64,000 nucleotides of DNA. Source: Coriobacteriia bacterium. GTDB lineage: Bacteria; Actinomycetota; Coriobacteriia; Coriobacteriales; QAMH01. The stretch spans positions 2,774 through 66,773 of the forward strand of contig QAMH01000009.1 of NCBI GenBank assembly GCA_003149935.1, in the 5' to 3' direction. Both the position numbers and the translations under genes were made by a program. The notes beneath the pieces were generated by a model, which worked only from the letters and a program-made list of their open reading frames with translations, made no database searches and had not been told where the DNA came from. Shown here in pieces: positions 1,678-55,659 of this stretch (positions within the stretch are counted from its first letter, which is position 1; each line of letters begins with the position of its first letter).

Positions 1678-1753
1678 GTATACCCCCTCTCCGCTAAGCC
1701 CAAACAGCTGTCATATTCATTCTCTTCTGGCAGAGGCGTTGAAAGGAACGAAC

Positions 1754-5888: not shown

Positions 5889-5936
5889 GTTTATCAACTC
5901 CTACTAACAACTGAAACGGATACGGGCTTGCGCGCT

Positions 5937-6134
5937 TTACGCCTTGCCCAGATTCTTCTTGACGACCTTCACATCGGCCTCGGCGACGACCGTCTCGTGA
6001 CGGAAGTTACGCTTACGCTTCTGGGACTTCTTGGTCATGATGTGGCTCTTGAAAGCCTTGCCGCGCATGATCTTGCCCGACCCCGTGGTGCGGAAGCGCT
6101 TGGCAGTGCCCTTGTGGGTCTTCATCTTAGGCAT
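5937..6134 (-). CDS. rpmI: 50S ribosomal protein L35
   Basis: [32 protein letters not shown]... is canonical L35. Confidence 0.95.
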
Positions 6135-6693: not shown

Positions 6694-6707
6694 GACAAAC
6701 ACCTCCT

Positions 6708-6743
6708 AATAAAAAACCTGCCGAGCTGCATTCAGCCGACAGG
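6708..6743 (-). promoter_or_regulatory. Terminator-like hairpin plus U-tract immediately upstream of the infC SD (L20-leader-type attenuator candidate)
   Basis: The minus-strand RNA CCUGUCGGCUGAAUGCAGCUCGGCAGG is followed by UUUUUUAUU, then AGGAGG. No room remains for a promoter between the hairpin and the SD, so infC must be transcribed through it. Confidence 0.45.
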
Positions 6744-6893
6744 CACACACAAAGACCCCCGAAGAGCGAATTGTAAGTGACCAGACAACTGAGCGCTTGC
6801 TCGTCGAAAGGTGGAAGGTAGCTTGCGCACCTTCACTTCGTAGATACGGACGCATAGTTTACACGTGCCCACGGGCACATGCAAGAAGTATTT

Positions 6894-8024: not shown

Positions 8025-8032
8025 ATGCGTCC

Positions 8033-8308
8033 CTATACGAAGTGAACCCAGCTATTAACAATATACAGTATTGCGACAATTACGACGACGACTGCGACGA
8101 CAATCAACGCCTTGTGTCCAGCTCCCATGGGCGGCGTCGATGCCAGCCCGTGGAACTCCTCTTCCTGCTCGGCGCTCATGTCGCCTTGCTCGGAAACGGG
8201 CTGTTCTGGCACTGCAGCCTCAGGCTCTGGTGCGACGGTCTGCGTCACGGTTTGCCGTGCCTGCTGTGCGCGACGCTCGACGTCTTCGATATGGCTGAGC
8301 TTGCTCAT
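8033..8308 (-). CDS. Small tail-anchored membrane protein
   Basis: 91-aa ORF with a C-terminal TM (ALIVVAVVVVIVAILYIV). Tightly spaced between the GT2 gene and the 376-aa gene. Confidence 0.5.
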   Translation of the reverse strand: MSKLSHIEDVERRAQQARQTVTQTVAPEPEAAVPEQPVSEQGDMSAEQEEEFHGLASTPPMGAGHKALIVVAVVVVIVAILYIVNSWVHFV

Positions 8309-8336
8309 CGTGCCTCCTCGCCTCGCAAAGAGCCGA

Positions 8337-9812: not shown

Positions 9813-9982
9813 ATTCCCGCTGCGGTACCCCTCCAGGTATTGTCTGCAGATTCGTTGTTGCATTGTAATGCAAGCTGTTAGCAAGCGCCAATCGCTCCAC
9901 AGTTTGTGCACGGGATGTTAAGGGAGCATTCAGGTGAGCAAATTGTGAACTTTCTCTCGCACCCGAGTTGCGCTTCGCACTC

Positions 9983-10376
9983 GAGTTGCAGCTCGCACCG
10001 GCAAGCTGCAACGCTCCGACGGTCGCTTCCCGACAGCCCGCTTCGCGGTCTTTACGGCGCGCTCCCTTGAACCTCCGCTTTACAGCTTGCCGGTGCGCTC
10101 AGACAGTCCTCGCAAGACCGCATCGAGCTCAGCGCAACTCTGCCCGAGATGTCCGCAATTCGCTCGCCTTCATTTTTGTAAGTTGTAGCTCGCATTGGCA
10201 AGCTGCATCGCTCCGACGGTCGCTTCCCGACAGCCCGCTTCGCGGTCTTTACGGCGCGCTCCCTTGGACCTCCGCTTTGCAGCTTGCCAGCGCGCTCAGA
10301 TAGTTCCCTTAGAGCCATATCGAGCTCAGCGCGGCTATGCTCGAGATGTCCGCATTTGCTCACCTTCATTTTTGTG
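9983..10376. repeat. Tandem duplication, 2 x 197 bp, each unit with a 13-15 bp stem enclosing ~65 nt
   Basis: Unit 1 spans 9983-10179 and unit 2 spans 10180-10376. The period was established from GGCAAGCTGCA at 10000 and 10197. The end of unit 2 overlaps the last codons of rsmA. Confidence 0.8.
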
Positions 10377-11259
10377 AATTATGTTCTAAGAACGCGTGGG
10401 CCATTTGCAAATAGACATCGGGCGCGAGGGTTTCGCCACGCACCGTGGGGGCGATGTCGCATTCGGCGAGCAGACGGTCGACGACATCCTTGGGATAGCG
10501 GCTGCTCATGGAGTTGCGGATGGTCTTGCGTCGCTGGGCGAAGGCCGCATCGGCCAGAGTGCTCGCAACTTCGAGTAGCTCGGGGGCCGGTGCATCCTCA
10601 TTGCGCTCGATGCGAATGACGGCACTCTCGACGTGCGGCGCGGGCATGAAGCAACCTGGGGGCACCTGGAAGCGATCGGTTACGTGCGCACGCAGGCGCA
10701 GCTTGACCGTGTAGGCGCCATAGTTCTTGGTGCCCACCTCGGCGCACATGCGATCGGCGACCTCGCTTTGCACCATGACCGTCATGGCATCGAGAAACTC
10801 GAAGCGCTCGAGCCAATCGAGCACCACCGTGGCGGCAATACCGTAGGGCAGGTTGGAGACGAGTTGGTGCGGTAAGGGCGCATCAAGGGCCGTGGCGGCT
10901 AGCTCGACCTCGTCACGCGTCAGCTTCAATGCGTCCTTCTCGATAAGGACAAGACGATGGGAAAGGTCGGCGGTCGTCTGCGCGAGCACATCGAGAAGAT
11001 CACGGTCTCGTTCGACAGCGATGAGCTTGGCCCGTTCGAGCAGTGCGATGGTGAGCGTGCCGATACCCGGTCCAATCTCGAGCAGCGTGGGCAGTTCTTC
11101 GTCCGGCTGCGGGTCATCGAGATGCGCGAGGTGCAGGATATTGCCGATGACGTTATCATCCACCAGAAAGTTCTGGCCAAGCGCATGCTTGGCGCTCAGG
11201 CCGAACTCCTGCAAAACGCCCCTGGTCGCCCGGGGATTCGCCAGCGACGAGTACGACAT
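10366..11259 (-). CDS. rsmA: 16S rRNA (adenine1518/1519-N6)-dimethyltransferase
   Basis: HALGQNFLVDDNVIGNIL...LEIGPGIGTLTIALLE...VSNLPYGIA is canonical KsgA/RsmA. Confidence 0.95.
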   Translation of the reverse strand: MSYSSLANPRATRGVLQEFGLSAKHALGQNFLVDDNVIGNILHLAHLDDPQPDEELPTLLEIGPGIGTLTIALLERAKLIAVERDRDLLDVLAQTTADLSHRLVLIEKDALKLTRDEVELAATALDAPLPHQLVSNLPYGIAATVVLDWLERFEFLDAMTVMVQSEVADRMCAEVGTKNYGAYTVKLRLRAHVTDRFQVPPGCFMPAPHVESAVIRIERNEDAPAPELLEVASTLADAAFAQRRKTIRNSMSSRYPKDVVDRLLAECDIAPTVRGETLAPDVYLQMAHAFLEHNSQK

Positions 11260-12344
11260 CAGCGACTCCTCGGTACGTCGGCCCGCACGGCACCGGCCAC
11301 CTGGACGGCATAGGACAAGTCAAAGGCGTCGCCGATAAGGCGATGGATACGCTGGGGTTCGATACGCAAATCGGCGCAGTTGAGGGCCGAGGTGCATATG
11401 GTTTCGAGGGGCTCGGTGCCAAAGGGGTCTCCGCCATCGCCGATGACGACGAGGTGGGCCGGCCGCTTGCGCGGAATCCAATTCCTGAGCACGTACTTGC
11501 GCGCCCAGTACATCTGGCAACGGTCAAGGGCGGCCTTGAGCCAACCGGAAGGTCCCGCAAAGTAGACAGGCGCAATGACGACGAGCGCCGCGCAGGAGTT
11601 CATGTGCCGCGAAAGCACGTTCCACGAATCGCCCTTGATACAACACTCACCGGTCTGGCTGCACACGCCACAACCCGTGCAAGCGGCAATCGGATACTTC
11701 GAAATCTCGAACAGCGTGACGGCAAAACCTGATAGGCGCAGATATTCCCTGAGCTTGCGACCGAAGAGGGCCGACTTACCATCGCGATGCGGAGAGCCCA
11801 CGAGAATGAGCACCTCGGGCGGCCTGGAGGCGTCGTCGGGCTCTGAGTCGGGTTCGGGCTCTGAGTCGGGGCGAACGGGGACGCCCTCGGTATCTACGCC
11901 GGTGCTGCCCGCATCAGAGGTATGCACGACAGGTTCGTCGTTGAGCTGGGTAAGGGGCTTCGCGTTGACCTGATTCAGGAAGCTCTGGGGTGACTCTCCG
12001 AAGAGCTCCTCGAAGCTTTCCTCGTCCAGGGCACCTTCAGGAGGCGTTTCGTCATCATCAACGTTTCCGGTGCCGGTGACATCTCCGGCAAGCGAAACCG
12101 ATATGCCACCATCGACGTTATATGTGGATCGGGCCGTGTCCTCGGTGGCGAGATTTCTCGACTCCGCTTCGCTTCGCTCGAAATGACAGTGGGGCGCTTC
12201 GCTGCGGTCGGAATGGGAATCAGATGCTTCGCTGCGGTCGGAATGAGAATCGGGGGCGTCCCCCGATTCACCCGGTTTGGGGGCACTCAGCTTCTCGAGG
12301 TCCTTCTCGGTTGGGAGCTTCTGTCGACGCGACTTCTTTGCCAT
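11259..12344 (-). CDS. Iron-sulfur flavoprotein-like (flavodoxin-fold FMN reductase) with ~170-aa disordered N-terminal extension
   Basis: The C-terminal domain VLILVGSPHRDGKS... carries the compact Cys motif CTGCGVCSQTGEC (CX2CX2CX5C). ATG 12344 is preceded by GGAGGGGG. There is no internal ATG before the flavodoxin domain. Confidence 0.75.
   Translation of the reverse strand: MAKKSRRQKLPTEKDLEKLSAPKPGESGDAPDSHSDRSEASDSHSDRSEAPHCHFERSEAESRNLATEDTARSTYNVDGGISVSLAGDVTGTGNVDDDETPPEGALDEESFEELFGESPQSFLNQVNAKPLTQLNDEPVVHTSDAGSTGVDTEGVPVRPDSEPEPDSEPDDASRPPEVLILVGSPHRDGKSALFGRKLREYLRLSGFAVTLFEISKYPIAACTGCGVCSQTGECCIKGDSWNVLSRHMNSCAALVVIAPVYFAGPSGWLKAALDRCQMYWARKYVLRNWIPRKRPAHLVVIGDGGDPFGTEPLETICTSALNCADLRIEPQRIHRLIGDAFDLSYAVQVAGAVRADVPRSR
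12150..12253. repeat. Dispersed element copy plus two 30-bp tandem derivative units, located inside the flavoprotein ORF
   Basis: 12150-12189 is GAGATTTCTCGACTCCGCTTCGCTTCGCTCGAAATGACAG. 12196-12223 and 12226-12253 are GCTTCGCTGCGGTCGGAATG(G/A)GAATC... The translation is SDSHSDRSEA x2 followed by PHCHFERSEAESRNL. Confidence 0.75.
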
Positions 12345-14965: not shown

Positions 14966-15151
14966 GGGATATCGGTCCTCACTCGTACGGGTGTGCTGGA
15001 GGAGATTATAGCGGCTTGCGCAGGGCGCAGGCTGTTTAGATTGAATGCAAAATGCTTAGATGAAACGTGGGCATGTCCGATGAGCTTGGGCATTCAACAC
15101 TCACGGCCTGTCCGCCGCCCGCTAGCGGCCATAGAGGAGCACGATGCATTG

Positions 15152-15928
15152 CTATCTCAATCGGTATTCCCACTTATCGAGCCAGTTGGTTCTGACGCGT
15201 TCAGCTACTCCATTCTCAACAACTAACATGGAGCCATCCCCGACTGGTTGCATGCGACTAGTAAGTGAGAAGGTATCGCACAGCCATATATCATCTCTTT
15301 TTGACCGCAGCTTCATACATGTTTCTACAGGCGTGTGCCCCACAATTTGGTTCACTCGAGATGCAGCGTCCGCCTGCAGATCGCGTTTGTCGGCCCAAAG
15401 CGGCGATGGCAGCTCACAACCTCCCCTTGATGGACCACAAGATGCAAGTGCCCGCCAGTCGTAGTATGACCCATCGAAATACATTTCATTGATTCTTGTC
15501 GCCAAGCTCTCTGTATTGTCAGCTCTTGGCGCGTACTCGTTCCTCCATTCTTCAGTCACCCCCGCATGCGTGATGAGATGCCCATCGCAGGAAATTGCAG
15601 CGCACATTTTAAATTGGCCGAGAAGCTCACGGATACTGTCCATCGCTTCAAGATGGGTACCCGAGCATCCCTCACCAAGCAAATACTCAAAGTCGTGATT
15701 GCCCAATACAAGAATGACCTCGATATCTCTAGTCGCGGCTAACTTAATCCACCGTGCCTGAACATCAAGTGCGTCTATTACGTCTTTTGCCGTCGTATTC
15801 CACTCATCTACGTAATCACCCAGGAAGATGATTCTGCTTGGTTCAAAACATGAGACTACCTCATCCACCAAAGGGAGGACTATCCTTTGTTTGCAGTGCA
15901 TATCACCAACGATAAGAGTTTTTGACAT
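15152..15928 (-). CDS. Calcineurin-like metallophosphoesterase
   Basis: Motifs GDMHC, GDYVDEW, GNHDF, THAG and GHTP occur in canonical order. The gene sits in the AT-richer island. Confidence 0.8.
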   Translation of the reverse strand: MSKTLIVGDMHCKQRIVLPLVDEVVSCFEPSRIIFLGDYVDEWNTTAKDVIDALDVQARWIKLAATRDIEVILVLGNHDFEYLLGEGCSGTHLEAMDSIRELLGQFKMCAAISCDGHLITHAGVTEEWRNEYAPRADNTESLATRINEMYFDGSYYDWRALASCGPSRGGCELPSPLWADKRDLQADAASRVNQIVGHTPVETCMKLRSKRDDIWLCDTFSLTSRMQPVGDGSMLVVENGVAERVRTNWLDKWEYRLR

Positions 15929-15995
15929 GAGGCTCCTCAGGACTACGCGTATTGTATCGACTTCGCGAGCGGCAGCATATCAGCATTGTTATAAG

Positions 15996-16345
15996 GCAAC
16001 CAGATAAATGATTATTTAGCTGCGTTGCTTTCAAGCGAATTTGCTCAGAGATTTACGGCAAATACGCCAACTGCTCCACTAGGTGAAGTTCTTGCCATTT
16101 CGACGAAAACTCTAAACCCGCGCGGCTGTGCAGGTGAGATATGGGAACATTACAGTATCCCCGCCTTTGATGAGAGCCATTGGCCTGTCTTTGAGCCGGC
16201 AGAAAACATCAAAAGCAATAAGTACATTATTGACACTGATTGCATTCTGATATCTAAGCTGAATCCATCTATGAAGCGAATGTGGGTACCACCTTGTGTA
16301 TCAGACAAAGCGGTTTGTTCAACGGAATTCATTGTTTATAAGGGT
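15996..16345 (+). pseudogene. hsdS: Promoterless half-hsdS cassette (central conserved region plus most of one TRD), 3' end cut by IS256-family element
   Basis: It begins with (N)QINDYL, sharing the 17-bp CAGATAAATGATTATTT with hsdS 3220-3236, immediately after an in-frame stop. TRD-like sequence follows (LGEVLAIS...EHYSIPAFD...ILISKLNP...CSTEFIVYKG) and runs into the IS inverted repeat. Confidence 0.75.
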
Positions 16346-17790
16346 AGTGTCCCGAATGTTGGTGTAGGCACCTAGAATCTGGTTCGTATTCTAGCCCATC
16401 ATCTAGGCGGCCCTCCTTCCAATCGGATTATCGGCGACCACGACATCGATGATCCGCCTCGCATGCTCTTCGGCGGTTCCCTCGTATGCAGGCGCAGGAG
16501 CGGTCGGCTTTGACGGAGCCGTTGCCTGAGCGATCGATTCCTCCGTGAACCATCTCCTGCTCGCCCAATCCTCGTCCATCTCGGAGAACACGGCTCCCAG
16601 CATCCGGATCAGCGACTTTCTGGATGGGAATACCTGCACTACGCGGCTCCTCCTCTTGAGCTCGCGGTTGGCACGCTCCTGCACGTTGTTGGTGCGAAGG
16701 CGCCTGTGGTGGGCATAGGGAAAATCGAGATAGGCGAGGGCATCCGCCTCTGCCTCCTCCAAAAGCTCCGCCGCCTTCGGACAGAAGCTGGAGACCTCCT
16801 CGCATGCAAGATGGTAGAGCTCGCGCACGAGATCCGGGTCGCGCTCGTCGAAGACGGCGTGCAGGATGGCGAGCACAGCCGCCCTCTTTTGCCTCGTGGG
16901 TGCACTTGATGCGGCATTCCTCATCAAGTGCACGATGCAGCGTTGCCAAGCAGCTCCTGGAAAGACCTCCTCTATCGCACGCCTCAGTCCCTCATGGGCA
17001 TCGGAGGTCACGCAGGCTACACCGTCTACCCCTCTCTCGCGAAGCGACCTCAAGAATGAGATCCAGCCTGCATAGGTCTCCGTATCGATGGCATCAAGGC
17101 TCAGCAGGCGCCTATAACCATCAGCGCCGACACCAATCGCGGTAACGAGGGCGCAAGAGGAGACATGACCTTCATCACGGCATTTGATATAGGTGGCATC
17201 GAGCCAGATGTAGGGATATGCCACCTCCGAAAGATCGCGGCTCTGCAAATCGGCCACGATGTCATCCAAGGACTCGCAGATCCGCGACACTTGGCTTGAG
17301 CTCATGCGCTCGATGCCCATAGTGTGAGCTACGCGCTCGACCTTCCTTGTTGACACACCATTTGTCACCATTTCCGATATCGCCGCGATTACCGCACGAT
17401 CCACCCGTGAATAACGCACTATCAGATCCTCTGGGAAATAGCTGCCTCGCCTGAGTTTTGGGATGCGCAGGTTGATCGTGCCAACACTGGTGTGAAGCAT
17501 CCGCTCGCGATATCCGTTTCTCCGGTTGCCATCGGCGCAGGCGTCTTCTGCCTGCGCGTCCATTATCTCGTTTACAAGCGATTCGGCCATGATGCGGATG
17601 AGCTCTTGGATGTTGACCATCCCGTCATCGAATCTCGGTAAATCTTGGCAAAGTGCTTGCTGCTGCTCTAAACTGTTCATTGCGGTCATCCCTTTCATCT
17701 CGAACTTCAGCAATTCAAGATTCTAGGCGATGACCGTTTCTTATGTTTCAATCGAAACGGTTCTTACACCAACATTTGGGACATGATCCC
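16342..17790 (-). mobile_element. IS256-family insertion sequence (~1.45 kb)
   Basis: Imperfect terminal inverted repeats TGTCCC(G/A)AATGTTGGTGTA(G/A)G(C/A)ACC lie at 16348-16374 and 17764-17790. Exact outer ends are uncertain by a few bp. A single mutator-type transposase ORF is present. The flanks show no direct target duplication. Confidence 0.85.
16403..17713 (-). CDS. IS256-family (mutator-type) transposase
   Basis: ...YIWLDATYIKCRDEGHV...DGYRRLLSLDAIDTETYAGWISFLRSLRERGVDGVACVTSDAHEGLRRAIEEVFPGAAWQRCIVHLMRN... is the canonical IS256 DDE region. Confidence 0.9.
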   Translation of the reverse strand: MLKFEMKGMTAMNSLEQQQALCQDLPRFDDGMVNIQELIRIMAESLVNEIMDAQAEDACADGNRRNGYRERMLHTSVGTINLRIPKLRRGSYFPEDLIVRYSRVDRAVIAAISEMVTNGVSTRKVERVAHTMGIERMSSSQVSRICESLDDIVADLQSRDLSEVAYPYIWLDATYIKCRDEGHVSSCALVTAIGVGADGYRRLLSLDAIDTETYAGWISFLRSLRERGVDGVACVTSDAHEGLRRAIEEVFPGAAWQRCIVHLMRNAASSAPTRQKRAAVLAILHAVFDERDPDLVRELYHLACEEVSSFCPKAAELLEEAEADALAYLDFPYAHHRRLRTNNVQERANRELKRRSRVVQVFPSRKSLIRMLGAVFSEMDEDWASRRWFTEESIAQATAPSKPTAPAPAYEGTAEEHARRIIDVVVADNPIGRRAA

Positions 17791-18074
17791 TTGCTTGTCC
17801 CTTGAACAACGTGCGCATGATTATTGACGCGAAATTTACCAGCGACCATATTGGCAATAGGCTGTTTTCTAGAACGAAGGTTCTCCCCATCTTCCGCAAC
17901 CAACAAATACTCGCCTTCGTACGAGTAGTCATCTAGATAATCAACAATGCCCTGTGCTCCATAGTATGGATATATTCCAGCTCGCGTTTCGCGCTGCCTT
18001 GCAGAAAGTGGCTCTCTGAGCGAGTCGCAAATCTCAACAACATCTCCCAAGGAAATGTTACATCCCATACCCAA
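17791..18074 (-). pseudogene. hsdS: 5' fragment (~95 codons) of the hsdS gene belonging to the hsdM-hsdR operon, truncated by the IS
   Basis: The start overlaps the hsdM 3' end. The N-terminal TRD sequence ISLGDVVEICDSLREPLSA...YPYYGAQGIVDYLD...FRVNNHAHVVQG runs directly into the IS inverted repeat. Confidence 0.8.
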
Positions 18075-19566
18075 TCGCCTCCAGATTCTTCTTAATCTGT
18101 TCTTGCAAGCGATTGGATTCTTCGAAGCACTTCGCCAACTCGCCGGTCAAGCGTTCCATCTTTTCCTCGAAAGGTTCACCATCATCTTCGACATCGGCGA
18201 TGCCCACATAACGCCCGGGCGTAAGGATGTAATCCTGCTTTGCGATGTCATCGATAGTGGCTATCGCACTGAAGCCCTTTTCTTCTTCAAGCTTGCCCTC
18301 CCTGAAAGCGTCGAATGCTCTGGCGACTCTCGCGATATCCTCATCGGTAAACTCACGCAACCTGCGGCTCACCATCGTGCCCATCTCGCGGGCATCGATG
18401 AAAAGCGTCTCTCCTGGTCGAGACTTTCCCTTCGAAATGATCCAGAGACTAACGGGAATGCCCGTGCTGTAGAAAAGCTTGTCAGGCATGGCTACGATAC
18501 CCTCAACCAAATCGGCATCGACGATGGCTTTTCTGATGTCACCTTCACCGCCCGATTGACTCGATAATGAGCCATTGGCAAGCACCATTCCCATGCGGCC
18601 GCCTTGGGCAAGATGGTGAATCATGTGCTGCACCCATGCGAAGTTCGCATTTCCTTCAGGAGGGGTGCCAAATTCCCATCGCGGATCATTCGCAAGTTCC
18701 TTGCCTCCCCAATCTTTCAAATTGAACGGAGGGTTAGCCAGGATGAAGTCGAAGTCCTCGAACTTGTGAACATCATCAAAGAACGTATCTTTATTCGCTG
18801 GTCCAAGGTTCGCATCAATACCCCTGATGGCAAGGTTCATTGTCGCCATTTTCCAAGTGGTCGGATTGCTCTCCTGACCATAAATAGACAAATCGTCAAT
18901 GTTGCCTTGGTGACGCTTGACGAACTCGGCCGACTGCACGAACATCCCGCCACTTCCACAGCAAGGGTCGTATACGCGCCCATGATAGGGCTCGATAATC
19001 TCGACGAGCGTCTTCACGATACACGCCGGCGTGTAGAATTCGCCAGCGTTCTTTCCCTCGGCTTCGGCAAACTTGCTCAGGCAGTACTCATAAGTTCGAC
19101 CAAGAATATCCCTCGTATCGCCTTTCTCAGCCATTTGAACATTGGTGAAAAGGTCCACCACATCGCCAAGGCGGCGCTTATCCAGTTCTTGCCGGGCAAA
19201 GTTCTTGGGAAGGATATTCTTGAGCTTCGGATTTTCGGCTTCGATTTGGCGCATGGCCTCGTCGATGACTTTGCCAATCTCCGGCTCATGCGCAGCTGCG
19301 GCTATTTCAGACCAGCGAGCGCTTGCGGGGACATAGAAAATGTTTCTATAGCTGTATTCATCTCTGTCTTCCTCAAAACCATCGCCCTCGTCGACAAGCT
19401 CCTGATAGCGTTCGTCAAACTTGTCGGAAATGTATTTCAGGAAGATTAGACCCAAGATAACGCTTTTGTACTCCGAAGCATCTAGGTTGCCGCGAAGCTT
19501 GTCGGCCGCCTTCCAAATTTGCTCCTCGAAACCTATCTCCGCGGTATTCTCGCTCTTTTTTGCCAT
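18058..19566 (-). CDS. hsdM: Type I restriction-modification DNA methyltransferase subunit HsdM
   Basis: HsdM N-terminal domain (LWKAADKLRGNLDASEYKSVILGLIFLKYISD), SAM motif DPCCGSGGM, and catalytic NPPF (ILANPPFNLKDW). Confidence 0.95.
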   Translation of the reverse strand: MAKKSENTAEIGFEEQIWKAADKLRGNLDASEYKSVILGLIFLKYISDKFDERYQELVDEGDGFEEDRDEYSYRNIFYVPASARWSEIAAAAHEPEIGKVIDEAMRQIEAENPKLKNILPKNFARQELDKRRLGDVVDLFTNVQMAEKGDTRDILGRTYEYCLSKFAEAEGKNAGEFYTPACIVKTLVEIIEPYHGRVYDPCCGSGGMFVQSAEFVKRHQGNIDDLSIYGQESNPTTWKMATMNLAIRGIDANLGPANKDTFFDDVHKFEDFDFILANPPFNLKDWGGKELANDPRWEFGTPPEGNANFAWVQHMIHHLAQGGRMGMVLANGSLSSQSGGEGDIRKAIVDADLVEGIVAMPDKLFYSTGIPVSLWIISKGKSRPGETLFIDAREMGTMVSRRLREFTDEDIARVARAFDAFREGKLEEEKGFSAIATIDDIAKQDYILTPGRYVGIADVEDDGEPFEEKMERLTGELAKCFEESNRLQEQIKKNLEAIGYGM

Positions 19567-19574
19567 GCTCGTCC

Positions 19575-22500
19575 TTACTCGTGAATCTTGTTATCAGCCC
19601 AAAGCTCGCACTGGGCCATGACGGTCTCGAGGGCGCCTGCCGCTTCCTCAGGTGGGTACTTGTACTTTTTCAGCAGCCTCTTGATAGCACGCCTCATGCC
19701 CGCTCTCGCACTCTCCTTCTTCTGCCAGTCTATCGTCGCGCTTCTCTGCAACGTATCCGTTAACTCGCGGCTTATCGCGACAAGCTGATCGTTGTCGTAG
19801 AAATCCTTGACGGCCTGTGGTTTGGTGATGGCATCATAGAATGCCATCTCCTCATCGGTAAGTCCCAGCGCCTTGGCGTCGAATCGATCCTGCATCATCT
19901 CGCGTGCCATCTTCAGAAGCTCTTCTATGACTTCGGCATTGGTGAGCATCCCGTTTAGATAGGCGTTGAGTGTTTTTTGGAGCATGTCGCTGAATTTCTC
20001 CGACTTGACGACACTCGTGCGTTGGTATGTCTTCACTTGCTCCTTGATAAGACGCTTCAGACTTTCGAGGGCGACGTTCTTCTGTTTCATGTCTGCGATT
20101 TCGCGTAAAAACGCCTCGTCGAAAAGCGATATCTCGACTTTGTCTTTGTCGAAGAGATTGATGACACCTTCGACTTTAACCGTTTGGTTCATGATCTCGG
20201 TAACGCGCTTGTTGAACTCTGCGTAGCTCATGCCCTTGCCACCGCTGCCATTTCGGCCCTCGATACGCAGAATCTGCACGCGCAGAACAGAGAAAAAGGC
20301 AGCCTCATGCTGATCTTTCTCATCTACGAGGCTTTTGCAAAGGCTCAGGGCCTGATTCATAAGCTGGCACTGCCTGATGAAATCTTCCTTATCATACTCA
20401 CGCTTTGGATTGAGTAGCCAGTCGGTACCATCGGCAATTGCCATCGCAAGATCTGATTTGCTTCCGCTGAATATTTGTGTTTCGTACTTGAAGCCAAACA
20501 GAAGATCCCGGCAAACGCGAAGCTTCTCTTGGAACTTCGGAAGAGCCGTAAGGGCGATGTCCATATCACCGTAATTGGCCTGATCTCGATTCGTATAGTC
20601 CTTCATCGCTCGTTTGAGCGCGTTGGCAATGCCAATGTAGTCGACGACAAGACCACCCTCCTTGCCCTTGCACACACGATTAACGCGCGCAATAGCTTGC
20701 ATGAGGTTATGTCCGGACATGGGTTTGAACACGTACATCGTGGAAAGGCTCGGCACGTCAAATCCGGTAAGCCACATATCGACGACGATGGCAATCTTCA
20801 GAGGATCATCGTCGGTCTTGAACTTTCGTTCCATTTCTTTCTTGTGAGTTGTCCCGCCGCAAACTTCGAACCACTCTTCCGGGTCTTGGTTAGACATCGT
20901 CATCACGACGCCGACTTTCTCTTTCCAATTAGGCCGCAATGCAAGGATCTGATGGTATATCTTCATTGCAATAGGACGGCTATAGGCAACGATGAGTGCC
21001 TTTCCGGCCAGAATATCCTCGCGATTGTTCTCATAATGCTCAACGATGTCCTTACAGAGAGATTCGATGGTTTCCGGCGTGTCGAACAGCGCATCCAATC
21101 CGACATGGTCGCGCTTTGCCTTCTCGACGCTTACCTCATCTGCCTCGGCGGTGAACTCGTTATAGGCGTTATCAAGCTGTTTGAGCGCATCCTCATTGAG
21201 ACTTAGAGCGACAACGCGGCTTTCGTAAAACACCGGTTTGGTGGAATTGTCCTCGACGGACTGTGTCATGTCGTACACATCGATGTAGTCGCCGAATATC
21301 TCGCGAGTGTTCTTATCCTCCGTTGAGATGGGCGTGCCTGTAAAACCAATATAGGAAGCATTGGGAAGCGCCTTTCGCACGACCCTCGCCGCTCCCACGA
21401 TGATGTTTCCCTCGACATCCATGCGCTCAGTGAGTCCATATTGGCCTCGATGTGCTTCATCAACCATGACAACTACGTTTGGTCTGTCGCAAAGAGGCTC
21501 ATCACTGTCGATAAACTTCTGCATGGTGGTGAAGATAATGCCATTTGCTTCGCGCCCCTCAAGTAGCTTCTTCAGGCTCGTCTGATCCTTCGGATTCGCC
21601 TGACTCGTTGCTTGAACAGGTTGCTGGCGCAAGAACTGACTGCATCGGGAGAATTGACCATATAGTTGGTCATCAAGGTCGTTTCTGTCTGTGATAACGA
21701 CAATTGTCGGGCTATCAAGTCGTTCCTGAAGCAAGTGCGCAAGAAAGACCATGGAAAGCGATTTACCGCTCCCCTGCGTATGCCAGAAAACGCCAATCTT
21801 GCCATCACCCTCGACAGCTTCTTCGGTTCTCAAAGCCGCCTTCTTCACAGCGAAATACTGATGATAGGCAGCGAGAATTTTGATTACCTGCCTCGAAGTA
21901 TTGCTAAAGCAAATGAAGTTTTTGACAATATCCAAAAGGCGGTATTTCGACATCATGCCATCGAGCATGGTTTTCCATGTAGCCAATGCGGTTTCGGAAT
22001 AATCTCCGTCAACAGATTTCCAAGCGACGAAGCGGTCTTCGTCAGCTGTAATCGTGCCCACTCTCGTCTCTGCCATATCGCTCATCACGCAGAAGGCGTT
22101 GGGCACAAAAAGGCCCGGAATGTGTTGCATGTAGTTGCGAAGCTGCAGGTATGCCTCGGAAGCATCCGTCTCTTCGCGCGATGGGCTCTTGAGTTCGAAT
22201 ATGACAAGAGGCATTCCGTTGACGAACGCAATGATATCCGGACGCTTCTCCGAATATTCGACGTATGTCCACTGATTTACTACATGGAAGTCGTTGTTCT
22301 CAGGATCGCTGTAATCAATGAGGTAGATGATATCGTCACGTTCCTCTTTGCCATCAAAATAGCGAACCTCAACGCCGTTCTGAAGGTAATCCATGAAGGT
22401 TTCGTTTCTGTGCTGAAGCGAATCGCCCTCAACATTCAAGATCTTCAATATGGCTTCTTGAATCGCGGCCTCTGGTACACCCTTGTTGATGCGAGAAAGC

Positions 22501-22682
22501 GCTCGTGGCAGGACATCCGGAAGAAAAACGTCATCGTATTTATCACTGGTTCTACGAACGTCTGGGCCATGAAGGTAAGTATAGCCGAGCCTATCTCGTA
22601 GGTGTTCAATCACGACGTCCTCGAAGAACTCTTCGTTTATTGGCATCTTGCTGTATGCGTAGTCAACGCCCTTAATCTGCAT
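19575..22682 (-). CDS. hsdR: Type I restriction enzyme endonuclease/translocase subunit HsdR
   Basis: N-terminal PD-(D/E)xK region (PDIIAFVNGMPLVIFELK), helicase motif I (HTQGSGKS), DEAH (VVMVDEAHRGQ), and later SF2 motifs. ATG 22682 is preceded by GAGGAG. The longer track ORF starts at 22733. Confidence 0.95.
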   Translation of the reverse strand: MQIKGVDYAYSKMPINEEFFEDVVIEHLRDRLGYTYLHGPDVRRTSDKYDDVFLPDVLPRALSRINKGVPEAAIQEAILKILNVEGDSLQHRNETFMDYLQNGVEVRYFDGKEERDDIIYLIDYSDPENNDFHVVNQWTYVEYSEKRPDIIAFVNGMPLVIFELKSPSREETDASEAYLQLRNYMQHIPGLFVPNAFCVMSDMAETRVGTITADEDRFVAWKSVDGDYSETALATWKTMLDGMMSKYRLLDIVKNFICFSNTSRQVIKILAAYHQYFAVKKAALRTEEAVEGDGKIGVFWHTQGSGKSLSMVFLAHLLQERLDSPTIVVITDRNDLDDQLYGQFSRCSQFLRQQPVQATSQANPKDQTSLKKLLEGREANGIIFTTMQKFIDSDEPLCDRPNVVVMVDEAHRGQYGLTERMDVEGNIIVGAARVVRKALPNASYIGFTGTPISTEDKNTREIFGDYIDVYDMTQSVEDNSTKPVFYESRVVALSLNEDALKQLDNAYNEFTAEADEVSVEKAKRDHVGLDALFDTPETIESLCKDIVEHYENNREDILAGKALIVAYSRPIAMKIYHQILALRPNWKEKVGVVMTMSNQDPEEWFEVCGGTTHKKEMERKFKTDDDPLKIAIVVDMWLTGFDVPSLSTMYVFKPMSGHNLMQAIARVNRVCKGKEGGLVVDYIGIANALKRAMKDYTNRDQANYGDMDIALTALPKFQEKLRVCRDLLFGFKYETQIFSGSKSDLAMAIADGTDWLLNPKREYDKEDFIRQCQLMNQALSLCKSLVDEKDQHEAAFFSVLRVQILRIEGRNGSGGKGMSYAEFNKRVTEIMNQTVKVEGVINLFDKDKVEISLFDEAFLREIADMKQKNVALESLKRLIKEQVKTYQRTSVVKSEKFSDMLQKTLNAYLNGMLTNAEVIEELLKMAREMMQDRFDAKALGLTDEEMAFYDAITKPQAVKDFYDNDQLVAISRELTDTLQRSATIDWQKKESARAGMRRAIKRLLKKYKYPPEEAAGALETVMAQCELWADNKIHE

Positions 22683-23068
22683 GGTGCTCCTCACGCAACA
22701 ATCCGCTCGAAACAAAGGCGCGTTACAGCGCATTATCGTAATCCGAGAAAATGCTGATATCTTGCGATTATACTTCGTGATTCTACTGCTAGCCGATACG
22801 AACGACTGGTATCAAACTCCAACGCGCGAATGGTGCACTCCGACTACATGCTATGCGACAGGAATAGCCTGCTCCGATGCAGAGAAATGACCGATTGAAA
22901 ATTGCAAATCAGCCCGTATGGACATACGGATGCATCTTCAGTTCTATTAATATACGAATTGGCATGAACTGGATTGCCGCAGGCACTCGAAAGACTGCTG
23001 GTAAAACGCGCGAAACGCAGTCAATATACAGGATAGACGTGCCCTCATCCTTGAATGGTGAATGGATT

Positions 23069-23458
23069 ATGGTAAATCCGAAAGGGAAAATAATTATCGA
23101 ACCAGGGCTGAATATCTGGCCGCACGAACTCAAAACAGCAGAAGCACTAGCCGCCGCTGGTTATACCGTCGAGTTTATTCGTAAAAGCGATGTCGAATAT
23201 GAAAAGACAGCAGACGTGCTAATTGATGGCGTGCAGTGGGAAATGAAAGCGCCTAAATCAGGAAAGACAGATATGATTTTAAAGAACTTGCGTCGTGCGC
23301 TCCATCAATCCTGCTGTGTTGTTTTTGATGCTCGCCGCATGAAGAATTTGCCTAACCAGATAATAGAGCGTGAAGTACGCGCACGCGCCCATGACTTGAA
23401 ATCACTGAGGCATTTAATCTATATCAATCGCTATGGGGAAGTTGTGACAATCAGATAA
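23069..23458 (+). CDS. Small protein with PD-(D/E)xK-like signature (possible restriction-endonuclease-fold nuclease/toxin domain)
   Basis: HELKTAEALAAAGYTVEFIRKS....KTADVLIDGVQWEMKAPKSGK gives the D...E-x-K arrangement. The track ORF begins at 22877, but ATG 23069 (MVNPKGK...) fits the compact domain better. The function is an inference only. Confidence 0.5.
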   Translation: MVNPKGKIIIEPGLNIWPHELKTAEALAAAGYTVEFIRKSDVEYEKTADVLIDGVQWEMKAPKSGKTDMILKNLRRALHQSCCVVFDARRMKNLPNQIIEREVRARAHDLKSLRHLIYINRYGEVVTIR

Positions 23459-23600
23459 CCCGTGTTAGACTACGTAATGTCAAAGCGCTCGAACGGTGCA
23501 TATTGTACCTTCCTCGGGCGCTTTCTTGCTCTCTTGGCACTCGTTGAGCATCCGAAATCCGTTGCACAAGACGTCGTCTTTACTTACTCAAACCAAACCG

Positions 23601-24431
23601 TTACTTCTCCTCACGGCGATACACGCTGTCGAGCGTTTGGTTCTGATCGTTTACCCACTCAATCCAGCCATTCTGACTGCCCCCAAGCACAAAGACAGCA
23701 GCGGCGCTTGGACTCGGGAACTCATAGTCCTCCTCGTGCGTGACGACTTCGTCCGCATTGCCGAAAATCTGCTTGCGTTTCTCATCCACACCGGTATTTT
23801 TCGTTATCGCATGGGTAAGGTCAATCTGGGAACCAGCTAGGACTGTAAACCGACCCGAGTTCTTGTCATATTTACCGATGCCCTTGATGCCATTGCGTCG
23901 TGTATGGAATACCGGGCTAATCTCAGGACCAGCATAAACCCGATCAAGGTCGAGGCCCAAAGCGGCCATCCGGAACAACACGTCATCGTGCAATCTCTCG
24001 ATGTAGTCTTCGGAATATGGGCTCACGTAAGGCTTGGGAACTTCCGAATTCACCGAGCTGTATGAACCATGCTCAAGAATATATGCAATCGCCTTTGCTT
24101 CGAGCCCGTTGAGAGCATCCTGGCTGAGGTTCTGGTTATCTGTCAGGAACATGACGGCTTTGTTCCAGAAGTCTTTCTTCGCCTTATGGTCATCAAGACG
24201 TCTGATGCCCTGCACGGTCTGTCCGGCATACACGCTACTAATCACTCCATGATCTTCATCAAGCAGATAGTAGATGCCGCGCGAGGGAATGTCGGGAAGT
24301 CGCTTGGCTTCAGGGAGCATAGCTCGCGGTATGACAATGGTCATAAGTGATTCGCCCTCGACGCGGCAGATCCGAATGCCCTCCGGATCACTGTTAATGA
24401 GCTGCATGATTATAGTTTTGAGCTTTATCAC
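23601..24431 (-). CDS. GIY-YIG nuclease domain protein with C-terminal DUF4357-like domain
   Basis: GIYYLLDEDHGVISSVYAGQTVQGIRRLDDHKAKKDFW...LEAKAI is GIY-YIG. The C-terminus is FPSPSAAAVFVLGGSQNGWIEW (DUF4357-like). AT-richer sequence. Confidence 0.8.
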   Translation of the reverse strand: MIKLKTIIMQLINSDPEGIRICRVEGESLMTIVIPRAMLPEAKRLPDIPSRGIYYLLDEDHGVISSVYAGQTVQGIRRLDDHKAKKDFWNKAVMFLTDNQNLSQDALNGLEAKAIAYILEHGSYSSVNSEVPKPYVSPYSEDYIERLHDDVLFRMAALGLDLDRVYAGPEISPVFHTRRNGIKGIGKYDKNSGRFTVLAGSQIDLTHAITKNTGVDEKRKQIFGNADEVVTHEEDYEFPSPSAAAVFVLGGSQNGWIEWVNDQNQTLDSVYRREEK

Positions 24432-24463
24432 TTGTTATCCCATCTGTTAAGCAGCCGTTATTG

Positions 24464-25300
24464 CTACATCCCTAAAATCAGCTCGTAGAGCTTGTTTTTG
24501 GGAAGGCCAAGTTCGCGGGCGAGCTGCTTGGCGAGAGCGGATTTTGGTGTGCCAGCGGCGAGCTCGGCGGCGATGCGTTCGTGCAAGGCGGGATCATCAA
24601 GCGAGGCCGCCTGTTGCGCGCGGACATCTGGCGGTGCGATGACCAGGGCAATCTCGCCCTTGACCACATCACGGGTGACGAGGTTTGCAGCAAGTTCGTC
24701 AGCAGGAAGGCGCAATACCTCCTCGTGAAGCTTGGTGAGCTCGCGGCACAGTGCAACCGGACGGGAGCCATATGCCTGTGCGATAGACGCGACGGACGCA
24801 GCGACGCGATGGGGCGATTCGTAAAAGACGAGCGCGGCATCGAGGTTTGCCAGCGATTCGAGAAGCGCGGTGCGCTCGGCCTCCTTACGTGGCAAAAAGC
24901 CTCCGAAATAGAAGGCGTTGTACTTGAATCCCGAGGCAACAAGTGCGGTCGTCACGGCCGACGGCCCCGGCAAGACATCCACCGGCACGCCCGCCTCACG
25001 CGCGGCGTCGACGAGCACACAGCCCGGATCGCTGATGCCCGGCATGCCCGCATCCGAGCAAAACGCCACTGTCTCGCCATCGAGCATGCGGGAGACAAGA
25101 GTGGGAGACTTGGCGGCGATGACGTTCTCGTCGCAGCGCTCGAGACGATTCTCGATACCGAAATGCGCCAGCAATTTGCCGGTCACGCGCGTGTCCTCGG
25201 CACAGACGACATCGGCCTGCTCGAGCGCCTCGAGCGCACGGGCAGTCATGTCGCCCAGGTTGCCCAGCGGCGTGGGCACTATGATCAGCTTTCCGGTCAT
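24464..25300 (-). CDS. rsmI: 16S rRNA (cytidine1402-2'-O)-methyltransferase
   Basis: KLIIVPTPLGNLGDMTARALEALEQADVVCAEDTRVTGKLL... is canonical RsmI. ATG 25300 is preferred, because the track start 25312 is a TTG. Confidence 0.9.
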   Translation of the reverse strand: MTGKLIIVPTPLGNLGDMTARALEALEQADVVCAEDTRVTGKLLAHFGIENRLERCDENVIAAKSPTLVSRMLDGETVAFCSDAGMPGISDPGCVLVDAAREAGVPVDVLPGPSAVTTALVASGFKYNAFYFGGFLPRKEAERTALLESLANLDAALVFYESPHRVAASVASIAQAYGSRPVALCRELTKLHEEVLRLPADELAANLVTRDVVKGEIALVIAPPDVRAQQAASLDDPALHERIAAELAAGTPKSALAKQLARELGLPKNKLYELILGM

Positions 25301-25365: not shown

Positions 25366-26370
25366 TTATGCCACCAGGAACTTGGCAAGGTCAATGCAGC
25401 GTGCGGAATAGCCCATCTCGTTGTCGTACCAGGAAATGCACTTCACGAAGTTACCCTCGCCGCCAAGCACCTTGGTGAGCCTGGAGTCGAAAATCGAGGA
25501 ATGCAGGTCGCCGATGATGTCGCAGCTGACGATGGGGTCGACACAGTACTCGAGAATGCCCTTCATGGGGCCTTCGGCAGCGGTCTTCATGGCGGCGTTG
25601 ATCTCGTCGACGGTCACGTCGCGCTCGAGCTCGGCCGTGAGGTCGACCATCGAACCCGTCGGGGTGGGAACGCGGGTCGCGAAGCCGTCGAGCTTGCCTT
25701 GCAGGCTGGGAAGCACCAGGCCGACAGCCTTGGCGGCACCGGTGGAGGTGGGAATCATGGAAAGCGCAGCAGCACGCGAGCGACGGAAATCCTTGTGGTG
25801 CACATCGAGGATCTTCTGGTCGTTGGTGTATGCGTGAATGGTGTTCATCAAACCACGCTTGATGCCAAAGGAATCATTGAGGACCTTGGCAAACGGCGCA
25901 AGGCAGTTGGTGGTGCACGACGCATTGGAGACGATGTTCATCGTCGCCGGATCATAGATGTCCTGGTTGACACCCATAACGATGGTGGCGTCCACGTCCG
26001 TACCCGGAGCGGAGATGACGACCTTCTTGGCGCCGTTATCGAGATGCACCTGGCAGGCTTCGCCGGTCTTGAGGCGACCCGTGGACTCGATGACGACCTC
26101 TGCGCCAACGGAAGCCCAGTCGAGCTCCTTGGGTTCGCGCGTCTGGAACGCCTTGATCTCGTGACCTTCGACGACGAGCGCGCCCTCCTTGGCGTAGCAC
26201 TCCTCGAAGACACGGCCCTGGCTGGAATCGTACTTGGTCAGATACGCCGCGCACTCGAGATCGCTCGGGTTGTTGATGGCGACGACTTCGACGTCCGGAT
26301 CAAGCTCTGCAAGACGGAAGACCAGACGACCGATGCGGCCAAAGCCATTGATGCCGATTTTGAGAGACAT
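25366..26370 (-). CDS. gap: Glyceraldehyde-3-phosphate dehydrogenase
   Basis: KIGINGFGRIGRLVFR...SNASCTTNCLAP...WYDNEMGYS is canonical GAPDH. Confidence 0.97.
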   Translation of the reverse strand: MSLKIGINGFGRIGRLVFRLAELDPDVEVVAINNPSDLECAAYLTKYDSSQGRVFEECYAKEGALVVEGHEIKAFQTREPKELDWASVGAEVVIESTGRLKTGEACQVHLDNGAKKVVISAPGTDVDATIVMGVNQDIYDPATMNIVSNASCTTNCLAPFAKVLNDSFGIKRGLMNTIHAYTNDQKILDVHHKDFRRSRAAALSMIPTSTGAAKAVGLVLPSLQGKLDGFATRVPTPTGSMVDLTAELERDVTVDEINAAMKTAAEGPMKGILEYCVDPIVSCDIIGDLHSSIFDSRLTKVLGGEGNFVKCISWYDNEMGYSARCIDLAKFLVA

Positions 26371-26469
26371 TCCAGATTCACCTTCCCTGAAAGGTTACAT
26401 AACGACATAAGTATAGCGGTGCTACTTTGGTCTCGCCGCAATCGTTCGGCAGGCGGGATAAATGTTGAG

Positions 26470-26700
26470 CGCGCAAAAAGCCCGGAAGTCTAGGATGCCA
26501 CGAATTCATATGCGCATTTTCTGCGAGAGTCTAGGGTTTGCAGCCCTTTGCAGGAGCAAACTCCTAGACATCCGCAAGAAATGCGCATTCTCACATGCGC
26601 AATCCTAGACTTCCGGGCTTTTTGCGCACGATTCGCTCTGGCAACTCGAATGGCCACTGCAAATCCTAGACTTTGGCGATTTCTGCGCATTGAGTCCTAG
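26470..26700. repeat. Cluster of five 25-bp TGCGCA..GTCTAGG units (2 forward, 3 reverse; 41-bp spacing) forming a ~160-bp nested palindrome
   Basis: Units lie at 26470-26494, 26511-26535 (forward) and 26563-26587, 26604-26628, 26665-26689 (reverse). Unit 1 and unit 4 are 24/25 reverse complements. A central small hairpin spans 26536-26562. Confidence 0.8.
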
Positions 26701-27767
26701 AAGATAACGAGCTCGTCGCGATTGATGAACTCGCGGGCCCCGTGCTTCCCGAGCAAACCCTCGAGCTCGTCGGCACCATAGCCAGCAAGACCACGCCCAA
26801 TGATGCGTCCCTGCAAATCGACGACGTCGACCGGATCACCTGCCTCGAACGTGCCCTCAACCGCGACGATGCCCACGGGCAACAGCGAGCCGCCGTGATT
26901 GAGCAGCGCATTGCAAGCGCCATCATCGCAGGTAACGCGGCCCTTCACCTTGCCACCGAGTGCAATCCACGACTTACGTGCCGCAAGACCGTTCGAGCTC
27001 TCGTCGAAGAAGGTCGTTCCGACCTGGCGCCCATGCACCGCATCGGTAATGGCTCCACGACGATGCCCCTCGCAGATGACCATCGGAATGCCTGCTGCCA
27101 TGAGCACGCGCGCGGCGGCAATCTTGGTGAGCATGCCGCCCGAACCGCTGCGGCTGCCAACGCCACCGGCACCATTCTCGATCTCCTCGCTCATCTTGCT
27201 CACGGTGTTGAGCAGCTCGGCGTCCTCGTTCTTGCGCGGATCAGCCGTGTACAGGCCGTCGATGTCGCTGAGCAGCACCACGAGGTCGGCGTTGATGGAT
27301 GTCGCGACCATGGCCGCGAGCGTGTCGTTGTCGCCAAAGCGAATCTCTTCGACGGCAACGGTGTCGTTTTCGTTGATGATGGGCACCACGCCCAGCTCGA
27401 GCAGACGCTCGATCGTGTCGCGTGCGTGCAAGTACGATTCGCGCTGCCCGGTGGTCGCGCGCGTCATGAGGATCTGTCCCACCGTCACGCCAAAGCAGGC
27501 GAAGGTGTCGGTGTACTGGCGGATGAGGCCAACCTGGCCGATGGAAGCAGCGGCCTGCAAGGTGGGCATGTCATCGGGGCGTTCGCCGTGAATGCCGAGC
27601 ACTTCGAGACCCAACGCGATAGATCCCGAAGACACGATGATGGGTTGGACGTCCTCGTCATGTATGAGGTTGGCGCACTCGGAGGCAAGATGCCCCACGA
27701 AGACGGCATCAACCTTGCCATCCTTCACGAGAGTGGACGAACCGATCTTGATTACCACGCGCTTCAT
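26697..27767 (-). CDS. proB: Glutamate 5-kinase (with PUA domain)
   Basis: RVVIKIGSSTLV...NENDTVAVEEIRFGDNDTLAA... plus a C-terminal PUA-like region. Confidence 0.95.
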   Translation of the reverse strand: MKRVVIKIGSSTLVKDGKVDAVFVGHLASECANLIHDEDVQPIIVSSGSIALGLEVLGIHGERPDDMPTLQAAASIGQVGLIRQYTDTFACFGVTVGQILMTRATTGQRESYLHARDTIERLLELGVVPIINENDTVAVEEIRFGDNDTLAAMVATSINADLVVLLSDIDGLYTADPRKNEDAELLNTVSKMSEEIENGAGGVGSRSGSGGMLTKIAAARVLMAAGIPMVICEGHRRGAITDAVHGRQVGTTFFDESSNGLAARKSWIALGGKVKGRVTCDDGACNALLNHGGSLLPVGIVAVEGTFEAGDPVDVVDLQGRIIGRGLAGYGADELEGLLGKHGAREFINRDELVIF

Positions 27768-45706: not shown

Positions 45707-45782
45707 TGGTGCCGACGAAGAGACTCGAACTCTTGACCCCCGCATTACGAGTGCGGTGCTCTACCAGCTGAGCTACATCGGC
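45707..45782 (-). tRNA. tRNA-Thr (anticodon CGU), CCA encoded
   Basis: Manual cloverleaf of the minus strand: GCCGATG-TA-GCTC-AGCTGGTA-GAGC-A-CCGCA-CTCGTAA-TGCGG-GGGTC-AAGAG-TTCGAGT-CTCTT-CGTCGGC-ACCA. Confidence 0.95.
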
Positions 45783-55406: not shown

Positions 55407-55413
55407 CGAAGCG

Positions 55414-55602: not shown

Positions 55603-55659
55603 TCCCTTCGCATGGGCAGCGGTAACAGCGAGCATCTCGTTGGTGATAAGATTGTGCCC

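Follow-up and report, generated by a model that had tools for sequence, protein, structure and literature searches.

Introduction

Insertion sequences of the IS21 class end in terminal inverted repeats (TIRs) that each contain at least two direct repeats, separated by 23 bp; the termini are CA-3' and 5-bp duplications are generated, and the ends of Mu and Tn7 likewise carry several transposase sites (PMC10122671). A different architecture is found in the REP, BIME and REPIN sequences of Proteobacteria, which are short extragenic repeats that are clustered, alternate in orientation or are inverted, are regularly spaced, form large hairpins, are lineage-specific and lie beside genes of any function. 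Classical MITEs (e.g. Correia) are small and non-coding, with terminal inverted repeats, flanking direct repeats and variable presence, and their copies are similar over their full length. Iteron and centromere arrays, such as the 43-bp repeats of sopC on the F plasmid, are single plasmid loci built from direct repeats only. Proteobacteria and a few Firmicutes have well-known families of intergenic repeats. Our literature searches returned nothing relevant on repeats of the kind reported here, and no intergenic repeat family was found described for Coriobacteriia; the family is previously undescribed.

The window, by which we mean the whole 64-kb stretch of Coriobacteriia DNA that was analysed, contains two arrays (A and B) of this family. 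The arrays resemble IS21, Mu and Tn7 ends in having several direct copies of a candidate site of ~25 bp in each arm, inverted arms and mostly 5'-TG...CA-3' outer ends, and array A alone has a 5-bp flanking repeat, a candidate duplication. As in transposon ends, the unit is bipartite with an A/T-rich middle, and the total length is 150-220 bp with no coding capacity. Unlike in IS21, the sites recur with a period of 41 bp, as compared to the 23-bp separation there. Unlike in IS21, Mu or Tn7, no cognate transposase or autonomous copy was found and the number of units per arm varies from 1 to 3. The copies here have the motif but not the interior in common, and the motif positions appear constrained in orthologues.

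The general properties of REP, BIME and REPIN sequences listed above are all shared by the arrays. The units, however, are not stem-loops, the arms are arranged in blocks (-> -> <- <-) and do not alternate, complementarity between arms is not generally kept, spacing follows helical turns, there is no GTAG head, no RAYT gene was seen, and the copy number is probably tens and not hundreds. The likeness to MITEs extends to small size, lack of coding sequence, terminal inverted repeats, variable presence and, at array A, a flanking direct repeat, but what the arrays have in common is only motif and spacing. Like iteron and centromere arrays, the present arrays have candidate protein sites at intervals of about four helical turns, separated by variable sequence; unlike them, they occupy many chromosomal loci, have two opposed arms and have no match in plasmid and phage collections (array A, blastn).

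Array A in the proB-gap spacer

The features of array A and its surroundings are as follows (positions in the window).

26470-26689, no strand: array A, five units in the order + + - - -, centre-to-centre distances 41/52/41/61 bp
26470-26494, + strand: unit A1, CGCGCAAAAAGCCCGGAAGTCTAGG, first base mismatched (CGCGCA variant)
26511-26535, + strand: unit A2, TGCGCATTTTCTGCGAGAGTCTAGG
26563-26587, - strand: unit A3, TGCGCATTTCTTGCGGATGTCTAGG
26604-26628, - strand: unit A4, TGCGCAAAAAGCCCGGAAGTCTAGG, perfect 26-nt inverted partner of A1
26665-26689, - strand: unit A5, TGCGCAGAAATCGCCAAAGTCTAGG, outer unit without a partner, 61 bp (6 turns) away from A4
26536-26562, no strand: centre of the palindrome, with a small hairpin GTTTGC...GCAAAC
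26465-26469: TTGAG, left 5-bp direct repeat abutting array A, candidate target-site duplication
26690-26694: TTGAG, right 5-bp direct repeat abutting array A, candidate target-site duplication
26697-27767, - strand: proB, glutamate 5-kinase (AA_kinase and PUA domains), the upstream gene
25366-26370, - strand: gap, GAPDH, the downstream gene

An earlier note on this DNA had read two forward and three reverse units in this spacer, and a pattern search confirmed all five positions. Direct CTAG positions (26490, 26531, 26564, 26605 and 26666) gave the core spacings of 41, 33, 41 and 61 bp that had been reported. Also as reported, A1 and A4 are reverse complements at 24/25 positions of the footprint, A2 and A3 match at 20/25, and the central GTTTGC...GCAAAC hairpin is present; the A1/A4 pairing was found to form a perfect inverted repeat (26471-26496 versus 26602-26627, 26 nt, 100% complementary). 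One reading that failed concerned CCTAGA at 26696-26701, which overlaps the TAG stop codon of proB and had been described as a last partial unit containing that codon. It is not a unit, because it has no in-register TGCGCA, it is out of phase, and the sequence preceding it is conserved proB coding sequence. The gap upstream region, which is conserved in relatives and includes TATACT at 26410-26415 (- strand), lies intact between array A and the gap start codon.

Array B and word statistics in the window

The second locus in the window, also pointed out in the earlier note, carries five units in the same 2 + 3 layout.

55414-55602, no strand: array B, units at 55414 (+), 55456 (+), 55497 (-), 55538 (-) and 55578 (-), spacings 42/41/41/40 bp
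55370-55407, + strand: intrinsic terminator of the hydrogenase cytochrome b gene, directly upstream of array B

Array B is located in a NiFe-hydrogenase operon, where it follows the terminator of the cytochrome b gene and precedes a shikimate-kinase-like gene; the terminator is kept in relatives that do not have the array. The shikimate-kinase-like (SKI) gene itself (55612-56181) lies within the operon between the cytochrome b gene and a HycI-type maturation protease, a gene order that is conserved in three relatives (L024-L026). The units do recur between arrays A and B, as claimed; the 23/25 identity that had been quoted for them is only what the motif constraints predict under a column-shuffle null.

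With up to two mismatches allowed, the pattern TGCGCA-N12-GTCTAGG matched 12 times in the window (1.78 expected), ten of these being in arrays A and B, and 0/100 shuffles reached 12 matches. GTCTAGG/CCTAGAC did not occur outside arrays A and B in the 64 kb, while TGCGCA alone is an ordinary word there. The ten units scored at least 18 bits against the motif profile, versus less than 7 bits elsewhere in the window. A chance origin of the units is excluded, and within the window they are confined to the arrays. The under-representation of CTAG that had been assumed from bacterial genomes in general was borne out in the window (55 observed versus 131 expected), and 11 of the 55 occurrences are inside arrays A and B.

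Motif, orientation and spacing

The motif derived from 33 units is bipartite and asymmetric, consisting of TGCGCA, a 4-nt A/T tract, T-S-N-CG-R-A-W and GTCTAGG-RTT (25-28 bp, the full motif being ~28 bp). The A/T tract occurs as AAAA, TTTT, GAAA, CTTT and similar variants in either polarity, a freedom that is typical of shape read-out on duplex DNA. Each array has 3-5 units, 1-3 per arm, and in 8/8 arrays a + block is followed by a - block, with TGCGCA on the outside and CTAGG on the inside. At least 12 of the 16 outer units begin with TG (CA-3' on the other strand). Three begin with CG (the left-end units of A, C and G), and the fifth (outer) unit of array E is degenerate.

The distance between neighbouring units was most often 41 bp (15 of the 27 spacings); a further six were otherwise within 40-43 bp, four were 51-53 bp and two were 61-62 bp. 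All 27 fall within 1.4-1.6 bp of 4, 5 or 6 turns at 10.3-10.4 bp per turn. For the seven spacings other than 41 ± 1 bp, the agreement had P ~7e-5 against uniform spacing, a value based on small numbers and on a null chosen after seeing the data. The period of about four helical turns proposed in the earlier note therefore holds and is broader than claimed, since every spacing is 4, 5 or 6 turns.

Linkers, which are 15-18 nt long at the standard spacings of 40-43 bp, are unrelated between arrays, and comparison of the 12-nt cores between arrays gave 18 pairs matching at 10/12 or better versus 17.4 expected under the column-shuffle null. Within an array, the cores of neighbours in the same arm resembled each other somewhat more closely (7.3/12). 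In array F, three 41-bp tandem copies are nearly identical, linkers included, which indicates that arrays grow by local duplication.

The conserved motif, orientation and phasing point to a protein that recognises double-stranded DNA, and not a folded strand as in the REP type: the motif is bipartite and asymmetric, the polarity of the A/T tract is free, spacing is in whole turns and the arms face inward, a combination that suggests recognition by one protein. Spacing in whole turns would place the bound proteins on one face of the helix.

Several other classes of element were considered for the units and rejected. A CRISPR array does not fit, since every array has units in both orientations and the linkers at standard spacings are only 15-18 nt, whereas CRISPR repeats share one orientation and are separated by unique spacers of about 26-72 bp. 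The unit has no dyad symmetry by inspection, and a Xer/dif-like or tyrosine-recombinase core site was therefore rejected. If TGCGCA were read as a -35 and TAGGRT as a -10 element, the 15-nt spacer would be too short for a promoter; a promoter scan found no promoter-like site, and arrays of convergent promoters would make little sense. The N12 gap is too long for a Type I R-M target, and that reading was rejected as well.

Distribution of the arrays

In total, at least eight distinct arrays (A-H) were found at unrelated intergenic loci in the window, in gut metagenome contigs and in one Coriobacteriia MAG. All are non-coding, have inward-facing arms and span 148-220 bp. Among 185,579 species genomes, the exact inverted unit pair matched only one, a MAG of an uncultured member of the Coriobacteriia from the human gut. 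The exact direct unit pair matched 12 metagenome contigs, in 12/12 of which the opposite arm is immediately adjacent; no copy with arms separated by genes was found among these metagenome matches. Several arrays occur together in the same metagenome assemblies, which makes it likely that they belong to one species or tight group. The nearest named homologues of the flanking proteins are from Coriobacteriales and from Eggerthellaceae such as Adlercreutzia. Two additional arrays in ~125 kb of unbiased sequence suggest, by extrapolation, about 10-40 copies (tens) per genome.

Viral contigs were scanned with three queries (inverted pair, direct pair, extended single unit), each of which gave 0 matches, and an Rfam scan of the window found one tmRNA (50258-50639, - strand, 141.9 bits) and one tRNA (45710-45782, - strand) as its only hits, with no match at the arrays.

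The genes beside the arrays include those for a CLC channel, ABC and EamA transporters, PntB, a DUF3810 protein, a LysR regulator and a GNAT protein. Most arrays are downstream of a gene, and co-directional, convergent and divergent spacers are all represented (one array is in a divergent spacer). That the flanking genes are functionally unrelated and every spacer type occurs argues against a regulon, and this idea was rejected. No cognate transposase or other cognate protein was found in the sequences examined. The ORFs beside arrays D and H, considered as candidates, show no relation to one another and appear to be spurious antisense ORFs. No match was returned when two mis-called ORFs of the window were looked up by exact protein sequence.

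Folding and complementarity of the arms

The potential of array A to form a nested palindromic hairpin or cruciform, as proposed in the earlier note, is real. The 241-nt region folded at -130.6 kcal/mol (z = -12.3), and array B and a further array gave z = -8.3 and -6.4. Single units folded as DNA (n = 8) had minimum free energies of only 0 to -5 kcal/mol (z +1.3 to -2.7), with stems of at most 3-4 bp. Two unit pairs are perfectly complementary, A1/A4 and a pair in array B (55414/55578). On average, however, the cores of opposite arms match at 6.3/12 positions, versus 5.8/12 between unrelated arrays. Since opposite-arm cores are near the between-array background, arm complementarity does not appear to be the conserved feature and is not generally kept; the long RNA or DNA hairpin is a consequence of the inverted arms.

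These results bear on the resemblance to BIMEs and REPINs noted previously. Under a REP/BIME- or REPIN-like mechanism, inverted units would fold as single-stranded DNA hairpins and be copied by a RAYT (IS200/IS605-type Y1) transposase. The clustered, inverted, intergenic arrangement agrees with this part of the comparison, as do the very stable predicted hairpins, the two perfectly complementary pairs and the lineage-specific distribution. The comparison fails at the level of the unit, which has no stem-loop and no GTAG-type head, and is doubtful at the level of the pair, where average complementarity is close to background. Flips in A/T tract polarity also count against it, as does spacing quantised in B-DNA turns, which would be meaningless for a folded single strand. 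No Y1/RAYT gene is annotated in the annotated parts of the window and array-flanking loci. RAYTs are, to our knowledge, rare outside Proteobacteria, which we also count against this mechanism, and we consider it unlikely.

A role in RNA would require read-through transcripts from the upstream gene (proB for array A) to fold into the long hairpin, which would end, stabilise or process the transcript. Such a hairpin would still form in a read-through transcript from proB and may affect read-through transcripts, and the very low folding energies, the position of most arrays downstream of a gene and the absence of strong structures other than array A from the proB-gap spacer are all consistent with this. 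On the other hand, arrays B and E are just after canonical intrinsic terminators and would be mostly untranscribed or redundant, and one array is in a divergent spacer. The complementarity is not conserved and no compensatory changes were seen, the spacing fits turns of 10.3-10.4 bp and not A-form RNA, and the Rfam match and the U-tract are both absent. We judge an RNA function very unlikely; it and the REPIN/RAYT mechanism are the less likely readings of the arrays. An intrinsic terminator at array A was rejected: the lone terminator-like match inside the array (26582-26601) is within the shuffle expectation (1 found versus 0.9 expected).

Presence, absence and change among relatives

An independent assembly of this sequence carried array A unchanged, and a strain contig ~93% identical overall had it with 3 differences in 220 bp. 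A sister lineage (L027) has a ProB that is 94% identical and shows 90.5% nucleotide identity over 21 kb. There, the proB-gap spacer is 165-174 bp of unrelated filler, as compared to 326 bp here. The adjacent gap upstream region is ~97% identical, and an unrelated 83-nt segment replaces array A. In L027 (11072-11160), this segment of ~83 nt has a GACAAATG...CATTTGTC hairpin and a GGCGC-GAA-GCGCC stem. More distant relatives have proB-gap spacers of 65, 120 and 136 bp with no unit. The beginning of this spacer is a hotspot of turnover. The comparison of this spacer in related strains, which the earlier note had called for, thus found array A kept in close relatives and absent from the ~90% sister.

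Array B is absent in relatives whose cytochrome b proteins are 94% and 83% identical, where the spacers are 94 and 117 bp versus 266-315 bp with the array. No units were found in ~170 kb of relatives' sequence. The absence of arrays A and B in relatives indicates recent gain at the individual loci. The filled/empty junctions are not clean for either array, and the spacers are otherwise unalignable. Linkers had no similarity to the relatives' spacers, and 'peppering', in which units would be inserted singly into a pre-existing spacer, was neither supported nor excluded on this basis. TTGAG flanks array A exactly on both sides, for which the chance is ~1e-3 per array (an estimate, not computed); no comparable 5-bp repeat flanks the other seven arrays.

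Further copies exist, in the form of at least eight arrays at unrelated loci, and array A is conserved in close relatives. The earlier note had set its interpretation against a local duplication artefact, and that case is excluded by the unrelated loci and the conservation in relatives. Some within-array copying did occur (the three 41-bp tandem copies of array F, the perfect A1/A4 pair), which is what a local duplication or a chance palindrome without wider meaning would have in its favour. The arrays come from independent metagenome assemblies and one MAG, array A is present in an independent assembly and a 93%-identical strain, and the shuffles never reached the observed count; we regard such a reading as scarcely credible.

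Array E is older. It is present in a contig ~90% identical with its spacing unchanged and without indels, while the flanking spacer has indels. Differences between these orthologous copies fell at 3/64 motif positions versus 17/96 other positions (p = 0.015; small numbers), and pooling arrays E, A and C gave 3/192 versus 20/280 (p = 0.005; small numbers). Among six strain contigs 93-99% identical, array E had 2 variable sites in 160 bp, as compared to 6.6% in the flanks. The slower change at motif positions could reflect gene conversion among units instead of selection. In the left flank of array E (L031, 9630-9654), an oppositely oriented, decayed unit with 2 mismatches shares its TGCGCA with unit 1. 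The array may have had more units in the past, or edge units may be subject to decay.

Host selection for a bound protein is a serious alternative to an origin from transposon ends. The arrays would then be host cis-elements with no connection to transposition, and their phased sites would be occupied by a nucleoid-associated, partition-like or roadblock protein with a role in DNA organisation or in the insulation of operons. Helical phasing, the slow change at motif positions without indels, the near constancy of arrays among strains 93-99% identical, the location between operons (after terminators in arrays B and E) and the dissimilarity of linkers between arrays all agree with this. The recent gain per locus (array A absent in the ~90% sister, A and B absent in the more distant relatives examined) does not, nor does the 5-bp repeat flanking array A. 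In addition, de novo origin of four or five in-register sites of 16 positions each is implausible without a copying mechanism, and the inward two-arm layout resembles transposon ends. On balance we consider host cis-elements of this kind rather unlikely.

Other repeats and variable segments in the window and in relatives

Other inward-facing multi-unit arrays were seen in L020, a more distant relative (ProB 72% identical), at 4707-4837, 5890-6108 and 6223-6353. Two of them are near-identical -> -> <- <- arrays of 23-nt units (GTGGTCRC...GATWTGG) with a 31-bp period that flank a ParE toxin gene, and the third array is built of CGGATATGARCGAT units. A related strain, L022, has RelB/ParE at the place of the L020 ParE gene. 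L021 has a GIY-YIG ORF just downstream of proB (11091-11387) that was not called in the sibling contigs L020 and L022.

Another relative, L019, contains two full-length copies of a 178-bp MITE (3137-3314 and 4342-4517) with terminal inverted repeats of 27-30 bp (CTGCTCATTTTTCYGATTRCTGGAA). Between them is an ORF of 365 aa for which Pfam records no hit and which looks like DUF559 or AbiEi by eye. This ORF was rejected as a cognate protein for the present arrays, the bracketing elements being an ordinary full-length MITE of another family.

In the window, a tyrosine recombinase gene (1652-2716, + strand; Phage_integrase and SAM-like domains) is followed by a Type I R-M hsdS gene (2713-3951, + strand), and the locus at 1652-3951 looks like a recombinase-switched, phase-variable hsdS locus. 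A segment of ~9.4 kb (~15044-24476) is missing from contig L007, which is ~93% identical overall. It carries a Type I R-M hsdR gene (19575-22733, - strand), an ORF with a CdiA_C toxin domain (22877-23458, + strand) and a DUF4357 gene, and several of its ORFs have low third-position GC. Relative to L003, L004 has a 5-kb insertion (6526-11641) ~1.3 kb from array E, in which an LRR/DUF285/DUF5648 protein is encoded, along with an ORF containing an LHH nuclease toxin domain.

Discussion

The interpretation that we favour, tentatively and at a little short of an even chance, is that the arrays are inserted modules resembling transposon ends, made of phased protein-binding sites on double-stranded DNA in an architecture of the IS21/Mu/Tn7 type. 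The inward layout, the TG...CA ends and the candidate 5-bp duplication at array A, all features that mark IS21-, Mu- and Tn7-class ends, lead us to read the arrays as two-end miniature modules. Array A would accordingly be a non-coding module of two paired multi-site transposon ends with nothing between them. Each unit of 25-28 bp would be a duplex binding site for one sequence-specific protein, whose copies, at spacings of 4, 5 or 6 whole turns, would all sit on one helix face, and the two arms would face inward like the transposase sites in IS21-, Mu- or Tn7-type ends. We infer from these features that a protein binds the units, that it is a DDE-type transposase or a host-kept derivative of one, and that TTGAG is a target-site duplication.

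The proposed history is as follows. The module would have been inserted into the proB-gap spacer, with duplication of 5 bp (TTGAG), after the split from the ~90%-identical sister. Modules would have been inserted at different times in the lineage and then conserved at their motif positions. Locally, tandem duplication of 41 bp and the copying of one unit onto another may later have enlarged or homogenised the arrays. Points that count against transposon ends are that the sequences examined yielded no cognate protein and no copy with genes between its arms, that array A alone has a flanking 5-bp repeat, that three outer units begin with CG, that the 41-bp period differs from the 23-bp separation in IS21, and that the arrays share no linker or core sequence, unlike MITE copies from one master. 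As the copies have nothing but the motif in common, they are not explained by simple copy-and-paste from a single master, which leaves an old and diverse source pool or renewal of the units by conversion.

A further proposal, which we put forward as a rather improbable one, is that selection keeps the arrays as docking platforms on which a lineage-specific protein, perhaps a domesticated transposase, binds DNA, and that they act as insulators or topological barriers between operons. Four to five protein copies on one helix face would then synapse the two arms.

The array grammar is unusually clear (fixed motif, inward arms, whole-turn spacing); together with the slower change at motif positions, it leads one to expect a specific binding protein. 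The motif can also serve as a sharp lineage marker, its exact inverted pair being present in a single species genome among those searched. Should the binding protein prove to be a transposase, the arrays would illustrate how multi-site ends can survive in miniature form, whereas a protein of the host would make them a novel architectural element of an uncultured lineage of the human gut. Were the docking-platform proposal true, the arrays would represent a new type of element in bacterial chromatin, one derived from the ends of transposons.
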